Shown in pieces: positions 45,006-49,327 of a DNA stretch of 64,000 bases (position 1 is the stretch's first letter; each line of letters starts with the position of its first letter). This stretch comes from Prosthecobacter sp. (lineage in GTDB: Bacteria; Verrucomicrobiota; Verrucomicrobiia; Verrucomicrobiales; Verrucomicrobiaceae). The stretch covers positions 5,444 to 69,443 of the forward strand of contig NZ_JBAQCR010000151.1 of NCBI RefSeq assembly GCF_049294395.1, in the 5' to 3' direction. A program made the translations under genes and the position numbers. Below the pieces are notes generated by a model that searched no databases, was not told the origin of the DNA, and worked only from the letters and a program-made list of their open reading frames with translations.

Positions 45006-45710
45006 ATGAGCGCTGTTTTTGACTCCCTTTCGCGATTTTACGCCTCCTCCATTGGCAAGAAGATTCTTGTGGCCCTCACCGGCCTCGCACTGATCGGCTT
45101 TGTACTTGGCCACATGATTGGCAACCTGCTGATCTTTGTCGGCAAGGACGCCATCAATGAATACGGTCACATGCTTCAGACCGCGCTGCATGGCGGTGGT
45201 GTTTGGATCGCCCGCATCGGCCTGCTGGTCGCAGTGGTGATTCACATCGTGGCCACCATCTCTCTGACCCGCGCCAACCGCGCCGCACGTCTGGACAAGT
45301 ATGGTCAGCACAAGGCGCAGGTGAGCAGCAAATCCTCCCGCATCATGATCTGGAGCGGCCTGACAATCCTGGCCTTCATCGTTTACCACCTGCTGCACTT
45401 TACCGTCCACGCCGGCAACAACTACGGCACCTACAAGACCACGCTCCACGGCGAAACCGTCCATGACGTCTACCGCATGGTCATCGCAGGCTTCTCCTGG
45501 GCCCCAGCGGTGTTCTTCTACATCCTCGCCATGCTGCTGCTCACCAGCCACCTCAGCCACGGCTTCAGCAGCCTGTTCCAGACACTCGGCGTCGCCACGG
45601 ACAAGACGGAGCCGCTGTTCAAGAAACTCGGTTACGCCTTCGCGGGTCTGATCCTCGTGGGCAACTGCTCCATCCCCATCGCCATCTACTTCTTCGGCTA
45701 CGGACGTTAA
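45006..45710 (+). CDS. sdhC: Succinate dehydrogenase/fumarate reductase cytochrome b subunit (b558, 5-TM type)
   Basis: 234 aa with five hydrophobic helices carrying His residues (GHMIGNL, VIHIVATI, YHLLHFT, TSHLSHG). It sits immediately upstream of sdhA. Confidence 0.8.
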   Translation: MSAVFDSLSRFYASSIGKKILVALTGLALIGFVLGHMIGNLLIFVGKDAINEYGHMLQTALHGGGVWIARIGLLVAVVIHIVATISLTRANRAARLDKYGQHKAQVSSKSSRIMIWSGLTILAFIVYHLLHFTVHAGNNYGTYKTTLHGETVHDVYRMVIAGFSWAPAVFFYILAMLLLTSHLSHGFSSLFQTLGVATDKTEPLFKKLGYAFAGLILVGNCSIPIAIYFFGYGR

Positions 45711-45728: not shown

Positions 45729-47645
45729 ATGTCTCTTAATTCCAACATTCCCTCCGGCCCGATGGCCACGAAGTGGTCCAAGCACAAGCAGGACTCGAAG
45801 CTCATCAATCCGAAGAACAAACGCAAGTTCACCGTGCTCGTCGTGGGCAGCGGCCTTGCTGGCTCCTCCGCAGCGGCGACGCTCTCGGAGCTCGGCTACA
45901 AGGTGAAGTGCTTCTGCTTCCAGGACAGCGCCCGTCGTGCCCACTCCATCGCAGCGCAGGGCGGCATCAACGCGGCCAAGAACTATCAGAACGACGGTGA
46001 CAGCGTTCATCGTCTTTTCTATGACACCGTCAAAGGCGGCGACTTCCGCGCCCGCGAGGCCAACGTGCATCGCCTCGCCGAAGTCAGTGTCAACATCATC
46101 GACCAGTGCGTGGCGCAGGGCGTGCCCTTCGCGCGTGAATACGGCGGCATGCTGGCCAACCGCTCCTTCGGCGGTGCTCAGGTGAGCCGCACCTTTTATG
46201 CCCGTGGTCAGACCGGACAGCAGCTTCTGCTCGGTGCCTACTCGGCCCTGAACAAGGAAATCGCCTCCGGCGGCGTGAAGATGTACCCGCGCACTGAAAT
46301 GCTCGATCTCGTGACCGTGGACGGCCACGCCAAGGGCATCGTCACACGCGATCTCGTCACCGGCAAAATCGAATCTCACGCAGGTGATGCCGTGCTGCTT
46401 TGCACCGGCGGTTACGGCAACGTCTTCTACCTCTCCACCAACGCGATGGGCTGCAACGTCACTGCGACGTGGCGCGCTCACCGCAAAGGCGCGTTCTTTG
46501 CCAATCCCTGCTACACGCAGATCCACCCGACCTGCATTCCCGTCAGCGGCGACTACCAGAGCAAGCTCACGCTCATGTCCGAGTCCCTCCGCAACGACGG
46601 TCGCGTCTGGGTCCCCAAAAAGAAGGAAGACTGCGGCAAGGCTCCGGACCAGATCCCAGAAGCGGACCGCGACTACTACCTGGAGCGCAAGTACCCCAGC
46701 TTCGGCAACCTTGCCCCTCGTGACATCTCCTCCCGTGCAGCCAAGGAAGCCTGCGATGACGGACGCGGCGTCGGCCCTGGCGGTCGCGGCGTGTATCTCG
46801 ATTTCGCGGAAGCCATTGGCCAGTTCGGAGCCAAGACCATCGCCGAGCGTTACGGCAACCTCTTTGACATGTACGAGCGCATCACCGGTGAAAGCGCCTA
46901 CAAGCGCCCGATGCGCATCTACCCCGCCGTTCATTACACCATGGGCGGCCTCTGGGTGGACTACAACCTCATGAGCAACCTCCCTGGCCTGCACGTGCTT
47001 GGCGAGGCGAACTTCTCCGACCACGGCGCCAACCGCCTCGGTGCCAGCGCGCTCATGCAGGGCCTCGCGGATGGCTATTTCGTCATCCCGACGACCATCG
47101 CCAACTACCTCGTGAATCAGAAGCCCGGCAGCATCACCACCGAGCATCCTGAATTCAAGAAGGCTGTCGAAAACTGCACCGCCCAGACCAAGCGCTTCCT
47201 CAACATCAAGGGCAAGCGCAGCGTGGACAGCTTCCACCGTGAACTCGGTCTCCTCGTTTGGGACAAATGCGGCATGGCCCGCACCAAGGAAGGCCTTACC
47301 GAGGCCATCAACCGCATCCCCGCCCTGCGCGAAGAATTCTGGCAGAACGTCAATGTCCCCGGCAGCGGCGACTTCACCAATCCCGAGCTCGAAAAAGCCG
47401 GCCGCGTGGCTGACTTCATGGAGTTCGCCGAACTCCTCTGCCTCGACGCCCGCCACCGCGAAGAAAGCTGCGGCGGCCACTTCCGCTCTGAATATCAATA
47501 CCCGGATGGCGAAGCCAAGCGCGACGACGAAAACTTCAGCTACGCCGCCGCTTGGGAATACACCGGCAATCTAAGCCAGCCCATCCTCAACAAGGAGCCG
47601 CTGACCTTCGAAGAAGTCCACCTCGCCGTCCGCAGCTACAAATAG
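45729..47645 (+). CDS. sdhA: Succinate dehydrogenase/fumarate reductase flavoprotein subunit
   Basis: [15 protein letters not shown] fold. [14 protein letters not shown] (FAD-linking His). [20 protein letters not shown]. Confidence 0.96.
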
Positions 47646-47660
47646 TGGTTTCCTGCCGTC

Positions 47661-47948
47661 ATGACCCGCGAATCTGAGTCCGAACTCCTCCATTTCTGCG
47701 CCACCCAGCGCGGGGAGTTCCACGAAGACGCGTGGACCAGCTTCGCCCCCATCGAAAAAAAAGAGATGGCCGCCGTCTGCCTCTTCCTGGCAGGCGTGGA
47801 CTGGTTCGGGCATCAGCAAGACCTCCGAAACGCTGCTCGCAAATTGCTCAATGGTGCCGAGACCACCTTTGGTGTACTCGCTCGTTCTCTCCGCTTCGAC
47901 ACTCCTCGATTCGCCAACTCGCTCAAAAGGAGGCTCGGCCATGCATAG
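47661..47948 (+). CDS. Hypothetical 95-aa protein, first gene of a two-gene insert in the sdh operon
   Basis: ATG 15 nt after the sdhA stop. Same strand. Its stop overlaps the next ORF's start by 8 nt. I recognise no motif, so coding status rests on position and composition only. Confidence 0.45.
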   Translation: MTRESESELLHFCATQRGEFHEDAWTSFAPIEKKEMAAVCLFLAGVDWFGHQQDLRNAARKLLNGAETTFGVLARSLRFDTPRFANSLKRRLGHA

Positions 47949-48516
47949 TCTGCACCCAGAACTCACCCGCGCCATGGGCGAAATGATGGATCGTATAGAC
48001 GGATTCCTGCGCGACAGCGGATACGCCGGAGAGCCCGTTCAGATGTATCTCGCAGGAGGCATGGCCGTTCACTACTACTGCGGCACACGTTACACGGATG
48101 ACGTGGACGCCACTTTCTCCCGACGGCTGATCCTCCCATTTGAAAAGCTGGTCATCGACTACATGCGTGAAACGGGAAAGCCGTCCTGCATCTACTTCGA
48201 CACCACTTACAACGACACCTTCGCTCTCCTGCATCCCGATCATCGCGAGTGCTGCGTTGAATGGGAGGGGATGGGCAATGAGCACCGGCTGATTCATCTG
48301 CTCGTCTTCTGTCCGGTCGATCTGGCTGTCTCGAAACTCTCCAGGTTTTCACCGAACGATCAGGCTGACATTCTCGCACTGGCCCGCCAGCGTTATTTCA
48401 CCACGGATCAACTCCAAACCCGCGCCACTGAAGCGCTCGACCATTACGTTGGCGAAACGCGCTGGATTCACCTCAATCTGGCCCAGATCAGCCAGGAAAT
48501 CGCCCTCGCCGCTTAA
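47941..48516 (+). CDS. Minimal nucleotidyltransferase-fold protein (AbiEii/DUF6036-like)
   Basis: The ATG at 47941 is preceded by AAAAGGAGGCTCGGCC (AGGAGG 7 nt upstream). [23 protein letters not shown] fits the Pol-beta NTase signature GG-x(~13)-[RT]xDxD. 191 aa. The track ORF start at 47851 is a less likely upstream start. Confidence 0.6.
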
Positions 48517-48538
48517 TTTTTCATCAAACCAAGTTCCC

Positions 48539-49327
48539 ATGTCTCAACTCAATCTGCACCTCAAAGTCTGGCGTCAGAACGGCTCGCAACCCGGTCATTT
48601 CCAGGACATCGACGCCCCGGACATTCCCGATCATGCCTCCTTCCTGGAGATGATGGACATCGTCAACGAGCGCCTCATCTCCAAGGGCGAAGATCCCGTG
48701 GCCTTTGACCACGACTGCCGTGAAGGCATCTGCGGCATGTGCTCCATGCAGATCAACGGCGTTCCACACGGCCCTGAAAAAGCCACCACGACCTGCCAGC
48801 TTCACATGCGCAAGTTCCGCAGCGGAGACACCATCTGGGTCGAGCCTTTCCGCGCACGTGCCTTCCCGGTCCTGAAGGATCTCATGATCGACCGCAGCGC
48901 CTTTGACCGCATCCAGCAGGCCGGCGGTTTCGTCAGCGTGCGCACAGGTGCGCCGCAGGACGCCAATGCCCTGCCCATCGGCAAGGAAGTCGCTGATTCC
49001 GCCATGGACGCAGCCGAGTGCATCGGCTGCGGTGCCTGCGTGGCCGCCTGTAAAAACGCCAGCGCCATGCTCTTCGTCTCCGCGAAAGCCGGCCAGCTCA
49101 ATTCCCTGCCCCAAGGCCAGCCTGAAAAAGACCGCCGCACCCTCGGCATGGTCCGCCAGATGGACAAAGAAGGCTTCGGCAACTGCACCAATCAATACGA
49201 GTGCGAAGCCGCCTGCCCCAAGGAGATCAGCGTCCGCTGGATCACCAAGCTCAACCGCGACTATGCCGTGGCTGCCGTCAAAGACGCCTTTGGCAACAGC
49301 CGCAAGGAAGCGGGCGGCGGAGATTGA
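48539..49327 (+). CDS. sdhB: Succinate dehydrogenase/fumarate reductase iron-sulfur subunit
   Basis: I use the ATG at 48539 ([15 protein letters not shown]). 2Fe-2S motif [18 protein letters not shown]. 4Fe-4S/3Fe-4S motifs [11 protein letters not shown] and [12 protein letters not shown]. Confidence 0.94.

Follow-up and report, generated by a model that had tools for sequence, protein, structure and literature searches.

The window analysed here is a stretch of 64,000 nucleotides from Prosthecobacter sp. (contig NZ_JBAQCR010000151.1), and this work focuses on an insert of 893 bp that separates sdhA from sdhB in its sdhCAB operon, the genes of a succinate dehydrogenase (SDH). The insert (47646-48538) holds two overlapping genes, one for a small protein that we call ORF95 (ORF for open reading frame) and one for a nucleotidyltransferase (NTase). 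We believe it is probably a promoterless two-gene module of the toxin-antitoxin (TA) type, with the NTase as the putative toxin, and that it is transcribed together with sdhCAB. We also think it likely, as part of the same explanation, that the module is a presence/absence polymorphism, lost and perhaps regained many times, and not a part of SDH function. NTase toxin-antitoxin systems are already known. What is new here is the proposed placing of DUF6036 in the functional class of NTase toxins, a partner family without a known fold, and a module that lacks a promoter and lies within an essential operon, where the junction exists in several allelic states and turns over rapidly.

The initial annotation had left two readings side by side, either a TA or defence-like NTase module that had colonised the operon, or an undescribed NTase-based accessory pair for SDH or fumarate reductase. 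The first is supported and agrees with all comparative tests made: a DUF6036 match, a fold closest to MenT1, the occurrence of the pair outside sdh operons, empty junctions in close relatives and an insert without promoter-like or terminator-like sites. The second is unsupported, because an accessory pair would be expected in all relatives and yet this one is missing from 21 of 28 related species genomes.

The nucleotidyltransferase

With 32.1 bits (E 1.2e-7, residues 33-167), the longer of the two proteins passes the Pfam cut-off of 23.6 for DUF6036 (PF19502). It has 379 homologs, most of which carry a precomputed PF19502 domain, and those with names are Prosthecobacter or Verrucomicrobiota DUF6036 proteins. 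The AlphaFold2 model has a confidence score (pLDDT) of 95.5, and its only significant neighbours in the PDB by Foldseek are chains of MenT1 (Rv0078A) or of the MenAT1 complex (E 2e-4 to 2e-3, probability 1.0), the best being 8an5_B (E 2e-4) and 8an4_A (E 7.7e-4). Weaker fold matches are TM1012, MenT4 (E 0.31), terminal uridylyltransferases (TUTases) and CCA-adding enzymes.

The nucleotidyltransferase motif that had been read from the sequence alone stands. G39-G40, a spacing of x13 and D54-V-D56 are conserved across 53 homologs, and A38-G39-G40, x13, D54-V-D56 fits the Pol-beta superfamily signature hG[G/S]-x9-13-DhD. The prediction that profile and structure searches would hit AbiEii, DUF6036 or MNT folds came out in part: Pfam does return DUF6036 and the fold is closest to that of the MenT1 toxin, but the AbiEii family PF08843 is not matched and the closest structure is not an MNT. 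Two further residues fit what is known of NTase toxins. R50, four residues ahead of D54, is invariant, as the family-specific Arg should be, and T52, two residues ahead of D54 in the Ser/Thr acceptor position, is at least 90% conserved. In AbiEii, motifs I-IV have been defined, including hG[G/S], R63/D67/D69 and K173/R180/D192 (PMC3985639). In MenT1, T39/D41/K137/D152 have been validated by mutation (PMC10435456), with D43 as the second Asp of the DxD. By sequence position, not by superposition, R50/D54/D56 of the window NTase pair with R63/D67/D69 of AbiEii, and T52/D54/D56 with T39/D41/D43 of MenT1. K132, R135, D140 and D143 may be compared with K173/R180/D192 of AbiEii and K137/D152 of MenT1, and the conserved residues as a whole follow the order of the AbiEii motifs I-IV. 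We conclude from model and motifs that this DUF6036 protein is probably an active nucleotidyltransferase of the Pol-beta fold, with MenT1 as its closest structure. Because of the PF19502 match, the fold and these residues, and since PF08843 is not matched, we file it as a DUF6036 member that would work like a MenT/AbiEii toxin, not as a member of DUF1814.

MenAT1 of Mycobacterium tuberculosis (Rv0078B-Rv0078A) resembles the window pair in several ways. Its toxin, the best structural match to the window NTase, is also about 190 aa long and built on a Pol-beta NTase core. The catalytic order Thr-x-DxD, Lys, Asp is shared, with MenT1 T39/D41/K137/D152 answering to T52/D54/K132/D143, and both systems have a short upstream partner without a DNA-binding domain (MenA1 68 aa, ORF95 95 aa). 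However, there is no detectable sequence homology between the toxins, the template modelling (TM) score is about 0.46, and Pfam places the window protein in DUF6036 and not in DUF1814/AbiEii. ORF95 is unlike MenA1 or any solved structure, and MenAT1 is a stand-alone operon whereas the window module lies inside sdhCAB without a promoter.

AbiE (AbiEi-AbiEii, a type IV TA and abortive-infection system, PF08843/DUF1814) is likewise bicistronic with an NTase toxin. It shares motif I hG[G/S], motif II DhD, the Arg four residues upstream and then Lys and DxxD motifs. The differences are that PF08843 is not matched, that motifs I and II are x15 apart in AbiEii and x13 apart in the window NTase, that KLxAaxxR and '+DxxD' are matched only in part, and that AbiEi is an antitoxin with a winged helix-turn-helix (wHTH) plus kinase-like build, unlike ORF95. 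When the window NTase was compared by hhalign with an AbiEii-like protein encoded near one of its own homologs (in L002), motif I alone was aligned and the score was not significant.

No mention of DUF6036 was found in the literature searched, and neither a function nor a partner has been described for the family. Membership of the window NTase is clear, being above the gathering threshold; what this locus adds is the partnership with ORF95 and the site within an operon. DUF6036 is a sizeable uncharacterised NTase family, for which the locus offers a candidate function (MenT-like toxin), a partner family and specific residues. The sdh-embedded NTases have a C-terminal extension (…EI[AD]-LALAA; window 48490-48516), and most non-sdh homologs stop at …EI/EM.

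The partner protein

ORF95 has no Pfam, NCBIfam, PADLOC or PHROGs match. Its 38 close homologs share an invariant N-terminus, M-x-RESE-x-LL-x-FC-xx-QR, and an exhaustive profile search of 1.84 billion representatives gives a family of 191 clusters at 50% identity, almost all of 90-105 aa. The AlphaFold2 model (pLDDT 92.4) consists of six helices. Structure searches of the PDB (best E 0.99) and BFVD brought up no significant neighbour, and a profile search of PDB sequences gave no match. It had been suggested that the protein might be a wHTH or ribbon-helix-helix (RHH) antitoxin; a confident model without PDB or BFVD neighbours leads us to reject this, and neither Pfam nor fold finds an HTH, RHH or wHTH, the DNA-binding domains of antitoxins, in the window protein.

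Four lines of evidence indicate what ORF95 might be instead. The first is co-occurrence: in 54 loci, the majority of which are not at sdh, the gene directly upstream of the NTase belongs to the ORF95 family. The second is fusion. P0241 is an Xre-type HTH_3 domain fused to an ORF95 domain, and its gene overlaps a DUF6036 gene in two independent contigs (L165 and L166); in the most distant NTase clade the partners are proteins of about 187 aa with an ORF95-like C-terminal half. Relatives in which ORF95 is fused to an HTH would have the layout of a DNA-binding part plus a neutralising part, which is classical antitoxin architecture. The third is survival without the NTase. Orphan ORF95 genes stand intact between sdhA and sdhB in L167-169 (SdhA 97% identical to the window), L170 and L016, and the ratio of nonsynonymous to synonymous substitution rates (dN/dS) between orphans is 0.14-0.19 at dS 0.94-1.65. 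Since these orphans are intact and under purifying selection, and a lone toxin could not persist, ORF95 should be the harmless partner. The fourth is rate: by dN/dS ORF95 evolves faster than the NTase, and antitoxins usually evolve faster than toxins. Taken together, these observations suggest that ORF95 is probably the neutralising partner of the NTase.

It is also conceivable that the roles are reversed, with the NTase as antitoxin and ORF95 as toxin. In HEPN-MNT (type VII) systems, which are two-gene modules with a small Pol-beta NTase as well, it is the NTase that is the antitoxin; it inactivates a HEPN RNase by nucleotidylylation. The higher conservation of the NTase would fit such an arrangement. 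However, at least three junction alleles retain an intact ORF95 without the NTase and under purifying selection, which would not be expected of a lone toxin. Its position ahead of the NTase gene and its Xre-type HTH fusions in relatives are the layout typical of antitoxins, and the closest structure to the NTase is the toxin MenT1 and not an MNT. Nor does ORF95 have a HEPN match in Pfam, a HEPN fold match or, by eye, a conserved Rx4-6H. We therefore discard a HEPN toxin role for ORF95 and consider reversed roles very improbable.

Some candidate variants of the pair did not hold up. Of two apparent fusions of ORF95 to the NTase, P0208 has no NTase part and L100 has a stop codon between the two genes. 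A truncated ORF95 in L002 is due to a 1-nt frameshift, probably an assembly error; together with a split CcbP gene on the same contig, it suggests long-read assembly errors there. Two other arrangements are worth recording. In L164 (681-1547) a protein known from a single cluster, P0213, joins a 3'-5' exonuclease domain of the RNase T family to an ORF95 domain; it lies in a mobile-element setting, with a resolvase and a DDE transposase nearby and no adjacent NTase called. This is intriguing, as 3' exonucleases could undo tRNA 3' extensions of the MenT type. In L142 (3932-4946) a low-GC NTase of the distant clade has no upstream partner, and a 122-aa ORF that overlaps its stop downstream may be an alternative partner arrangement.

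Layout, expression and proposed mechanism

The genes sdhC, sdhA, ORF95, NTase and sdhB all lie on the forward strand at the coordinates first assigned to them (Table 1), and the gap between sdhA and sdhB is indeed 893 bp. The two inserted genes do overlap by 8 nt (ATGCATAG), and the AGGAGG is found 7 nt ahead of the NTase ATG, as described. Across the window AGGAGG occurs 17 times on the forward and 23 times on the reverse strand. The start codons at 47661 and 47941 agree with the N-termini of homologs, which lend no support to a longer ORF of 221 aa from 47851. Wherever related loci have a linked sdhA, sdhC is syntenic with sdhA and sdhB.

Table 1. Coordinates of the sdhCAB operon and its insert in the window
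Feature	Position	Strand	Description and evidence
sdhC	45006-45710	+	Dihaem cytochrome b membrane subunit, first gene of the host operon; Pfam Sdh_cyt weak, 20.9 bits, below gathering score
sdhA	45729-47645	+	Flavoprotein subunit; Pfam FAD_binding_2 E 1.2e-50, Succ_DH_flav_C E 4.4e-35
Left spacer	47646-47660	+	15 nt, leader of ORF95
ORF95	47661-47948	+	95 aa, all-helical, unannotated family; putative antitoxin/regulator of the NTase
Shine-Dalgarno site AGGAGG	47928-47933	+	Serves the NTase gene; formed by the ORF95 codons for Arg90-Arg91
NTase	47941-48516	+	191 aa, DUF6036 nucleotidyltransferase; putative MenT-like toxin
Motif I glycines G39-G40 (hG[G/S])	48055-48060	+	G40 invariant, G39 at least 90% in 53 homologs
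Motif II R50-Y-T52-D-D54-V-D56	48088-48108	+	R50, D54 invariant; T52, D56 at least 90% in 53 homologs
D87	48199-48201	+	Candidate third metal ligand; invariant in 53-homolog alignment
K132-L-S-R135 ... D140-Q-A-D143	48334-48369	+	Motif III-like, and motif IV-like DxxD; R135, D143 invariant; K132, D140 at least 90% (53 homologs)
Right spacer	48517-48538	+	22 nt, leader of sdhB
sdhB	48539-49327	+	Iron-sulfur subunit, downstream of the cassette; Pfam Fer2_3 E 9e-21; Fer4_8/Fer4_7 also match

Both inserted ORFs are real, selected genes, because they have homologs and are under purifying selection: in copies embedded in sdh the NTase has a dN/dS of 0.04-0.17 and ORF95 one of 0.08-0.32, against 0.04-0.14 for sdhA and sdhB. 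No sigma-70-like promoter or terminator-like site was found within 47646-48538, which is consistent with the cassette being read through from the sdh promoter. The evidence for translation of the NTase is indirect but specific. Of 14 copies embedded in sdh, 12 keep AGGAGG and 13 keep GGAGG at the nucleotide level. The 64 Arg codons of sdhC, sdhA and sdhB include neither AGG nor AGA. The orphan ORF95 alleles all keep the basic dipeptide (R-R or R-K) and encode it by CGC-CGC, CGT-AAA or CGC-CGA. The Shine-Dalgarno site is thus maintained only where an NTase follows, which argues that the NTase is translated.

These same data speak to the idea that the cassette is a decaying or inert remnant without a current function. 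The frequent loss of the cassette could be taken that way, and so could its GC content at third codon positions (GC3), which is 0.68-0.70 as against 0.78-0.81 in the sdh genes. But purifying selection on both genes is strong, the catalytic residues are invariant, the codon pair of the Shine-Dalgarno site is maintained, and the 14 sdh-embedded copies examined are free of frameshifts and truncations, so we find a remnant hardly credible. A separate observation concerns synonymous divergence. In the same genome pairs the dS of the NTase is about twice that of the flanking sdh genes (0.97 for the NTase and 0.48 for sdhA between the window and L084), and that of ORF95 is equal to or above it (0.57 in this pair). 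The raised dS of the cassette and its GC3 lower by about 0.1 could mean that codon bias is less strong there, or that the cassette alleles coalesce further back in time.

The mechanism we propose for a TA-type module is as follows. The module would have lodged in the sdhA-sdhB spacer of an ancestor of the Prosthecobacter lineage, where it would be transcribed by read-through from the sdh promoter, and translation of the NTase would start via the AGGAGG within the last codons of ORF95. MenT-type toxins transfer nucleotides to the acceptor ends of tRNA and block aminoacylation (PMC7450476, PMC10435456). By analogy with MenAT1, the NTase would most likely add nucleotides to tRNA 3' ends (or act on another RNA or protein target), block aminoacylation and arrest translation. 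ORF95 probably binds the NTase and occludes its active site. Alternatively, it might trigger an inhibitory auto-modification (auto-phosphorylation) at T52, much as MenA1 induces the inhibitory auto-phosphorylation of MenT1 at T39 (PMC11375011); the phospho-acceptor Ser/Thr of the MenT toxins is T39 in MenT1, S78 in MenT3 and S67 in MenT4.

It is important to realize that several points weigh against a TA module of this kind. The likeness of the NTase to MenT1 is at the level of fold only (TM 0.43-0.47, root-mean-square deviation about 7 Å); there is no sequence-level match in the PDB and none to Pfam AbiEii/DUF1814 PF08843 at E up to 1. Motif III (KLxAaxxR) is matched in part, V-S-K132-L-S-R135-F having the Lys, the Arg and an aromatic residue outside the consensus register, and so is motif IV (+DxxD), where D140-Q-A-D143 is conserved and the residue before it is N/Q, not K/R. 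PADLOC and NCBIfam recognise neither the NTase nor ORF95, and PHROGs has no match to the NTase either. As modelled, ORF95 resembles no known antitoxin fold, and its long-term retention as an orphan could mean that it has a function of its own. The case for co-transcription rests on lacking consensus promoter and terminator matches, from a scan that may not cover Verrucomicrobial promoters. The frequent loss of the cassette is awkward to reconcile with strong addiction. Finally, toxicity, its neutralisation by ORF95, the substrate, co-transcription and the benefit (selfish persistence or phage defence) are inferences, and the proposed mechanism is drawn from fold and motifs.

Turnover at the sdhA-sdhB junction

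A scan anchored on sdhB, with one genome per species, gave 80 loci, each scored for the content of the junction. The related group (Prosthecobacter/Verrucomicrobiaceae, SdhB at least 79% identical) comprises 28 species genomes. Five of these have ORF95 and the NTase at the junction (L006, L013, L023, L029, L030), one has a ParDE-like pair (L005), one a PIN-like pair with an orphan ORF95 (L016), and 21 are empty, with a spacer of 11-59 nt. The empty loci include L004, L007 and L011, in which SdhA is 96-97% identical to that of the window. All 35 outgroup loci with linked sdhA and sdhB are empty. The initial annotation had stated that the two genes are normally contiguous, and this is true of the 56 related linked loci without an insert, where the gap runs from -3 to 161 nt, as it does in the outgroups taken by themselves. 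The cassette is also present in P. fusiformis (L001) and nine metagenomic contigs (L084-L091, L121). The short spacers of most relatives, the GC3 of the cassette below that of the sdh genes and the lack of promoter-like or terminator-like sites in it speak for an insert.

On a tree of SdhA+SdhB with 37 taxa, filled and empty junctions are interleaved. Sister pairs are the window with L004, L084 with L007/L011, L085 with L009, L088 with L022, L023 with L021, and L001 with L019. Fitch parsimony requires at least 11-13 changes of junction state, and a model with a single gain needs 14-19 losses. The NTases embedded in sdh do not form a clade (0 of 100 bootstraps): those of L090 and L091 group with L092, L002 and L003 from outside sdh, so the module has entered or left the junction more than once. 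A recent horizontal transfer of the cassette is not supported, as in every pair its dS equals or exceeds that of the sdh genes on either side. The main process appears to be the repeated loss of an old insert. The overlap of 8 nt, the pairing of the two genes in 54 loci and different contexts, and the 11-13 state changes on the host tree are in keeping with a TA module in general.

These results also bear on whether the pair, or ORF95 alone, might be an accessory or regulatory factor of SDH or quinol:fumarate reductase (QFR), for example one that modifies or chaperones a subunit. In favour of such a factor, the genes are strictly within the operon, on the same strand and tightly spaced, several lineages retain an orphan ORF95 between sdhA and sdhB under purifying selection, and every NTase homolog with flanks that is at least 58% identical is embedded at the sdhA-sdhB junction (all those below are elsewhere). 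Against it, the pair is absent from most of the related genomes, some with nearly identical SdhA, and from every outgroup locus, it also occurs at loci unrelated to sdh, including a TA island, and unrelated TA cassettes (ParDE-like, PIN-like) occupy the same junction. There is no Pfam match to Sdh5/SdhE or another assembly factor and no SdhE-like fold match, and on these grounds and its absence from most relatives we reject the SdhE/SDHAF2 (Sdh5) assembly factor in particular. We judge an SDH factor of any kind to be improbable.

When filled and empty sisters are compared, the insert runs essentially from the ATG of ORF95 to the stop codon of the NTase and divides the original spacer in two; no target-site duplication is seen at its boundaries. 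The sister loci L023/L021 and L001/L019 suggest that the left spacer is the 5' part of the original sdhA-sdhB spacer. The right spacer appears homologous to the spacer of the empty site (…TTTTTCA…GTCCCC-ATG), judged by eye and unscored. We infer that clean gain and loss would come about by allele replacement, through homologous recombination in the conserved sdhA and sdhB flanks. A repeat search of the window found no meaningful flanking repeat around the insert, as had been noted. A direct repeat of 16 nt in the tails of sdhA and the NTase, 883 nt apart, was examined as a possible insertion scar; it is coincidental, because other filled loci show no more identity there than chance would give, and the NTase tail is part of the C-terminal helix of the NTase family itself. 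An integron cassette was also considered and rejected. Such a cassette would carry at its 3' end an attC site, an imperfect inverted repeat of some 57 nt or longer; the 22 nt between the NTase stop and the sdhB ATG are too short for one, and no flanking inverted repeat was found.

ORF95 and the NTase are not the only genes found at this site. L005 (965-1506) has, at the sdhA-sdhB junction, an 83-aa gene called an 'addiction module component', whose Unstab_antitox match is below threshold, and a 97-aa ParE that passes the gathering score at 26.5 bits. L170 (128-669) has a related 83-aa gene, a ParE truncated to 59 aa and then an orphan ORF95. These ParDE-like arrangements argue that cassettes stack and decay in a modular way. 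In L016 the junction holds a PIN-like 162-aa gene (21.3 bits, below threshold) and a 74-aa gene besides the orphan ORF95. A homolog of this PIN-like gene (28% identity, E 7e-14), an ORF of 159 aa with weak PIN and PIN_3 matches, lies with an overlapping 55-aa ORF between sdhC and sdhA in L013 (2519-3146), which therefore has two cassettes in one sdh operon. Judged by gene content, the sdhA-sdhB junction is a hotspot for putative TA-type cassettes. A full-text literature search found no report of TA cassettes in sdh operons.

An anti-phage function is a different way of reading the same module. In such an abortive-infection or sensor-effector system ORF95 would restrain the NTase until infection or a shut-off of host transcription depleted ORF95, and the operon would provide constitutive expression. 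NTases of the AbiE/MenT type are abortive-infection toxins (PMC3985639), the rapid turnover of presence and absence in close relatives is typical of defence genes, and one homolog (58% identical, L002:1983-9371) has PIN_3, AbiEii-like, HTH+HipA and Fic genes around it, in a TA/defence island. On the other hand, the window copy has no defence island around it, and with no PADLOC, NCBIfam or PHROGs match to either protein it is not recognised as a known defence system. We regard an anti-phage role as unlikely, though plausible; it overlaps with our preferred explanation of a TA-type module and does not exclude it.

A bolder idea is that in Prosthecobacter-type Verrucomicrobiaceae the short spacers of sdhCAB serve as a dedicated site that takes up promoterless TA or defence cassettes without an integrase. 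The use of two junctions by three or more cassette types, the clean turnover of alleles and insert boundaries that lie at the ORF ends or within a few nt of them point in this direction, and we would call the idea speculative and rather doubtful. If it were true, release of the toxin would be coupled to a shut-down of respiration or transcription, such as a phage takeover or an anoxic shift, and orphan ORF95 genes would persist because they give immunity to reinvasion, or because the operon has co-opted them.

With its alleles (empty, ORF95 + NTase, orphan ORF95, ParDE-like and PIN-like), the junction is a natural system for studying how selfish or defence cassettes are gained and lost in core operons without the help of recombinases. 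It is also one in which to ask if read-through from a housekeeping promoter can replace antitoxin autoregulation, and why orphan antitoxins persist.

Two minor observations concern the loci scanned. In loci of the Rubritalea, Luteolibacter and Akkermansiaceae type (L034, L039, L041, L045, L052, L056-L058, L060, L062, L066, L067, L069, L073, L075-L077), sdhB has no sdhA in the 6 kb upstream. Larger inserts splitting sdhA from sdhB were looked for in two of these, L034 and L056; unrelated large ORFs lie upstream there, so sdhB is unlinked or a paralog and not split by an insert. The taxon labels of some metagenome-assembled genomes ('Akkermansia muciniphila', 'Polynucleobacter', 'Vicinamibacteria') do not fit their Verrucomicrobiaceae-like sdh genes (L006, L048, L053, L041). 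In L006, for instance, SdhA is 94% identical to that of the window, and mislabelling or bin contamination is likely for these records.

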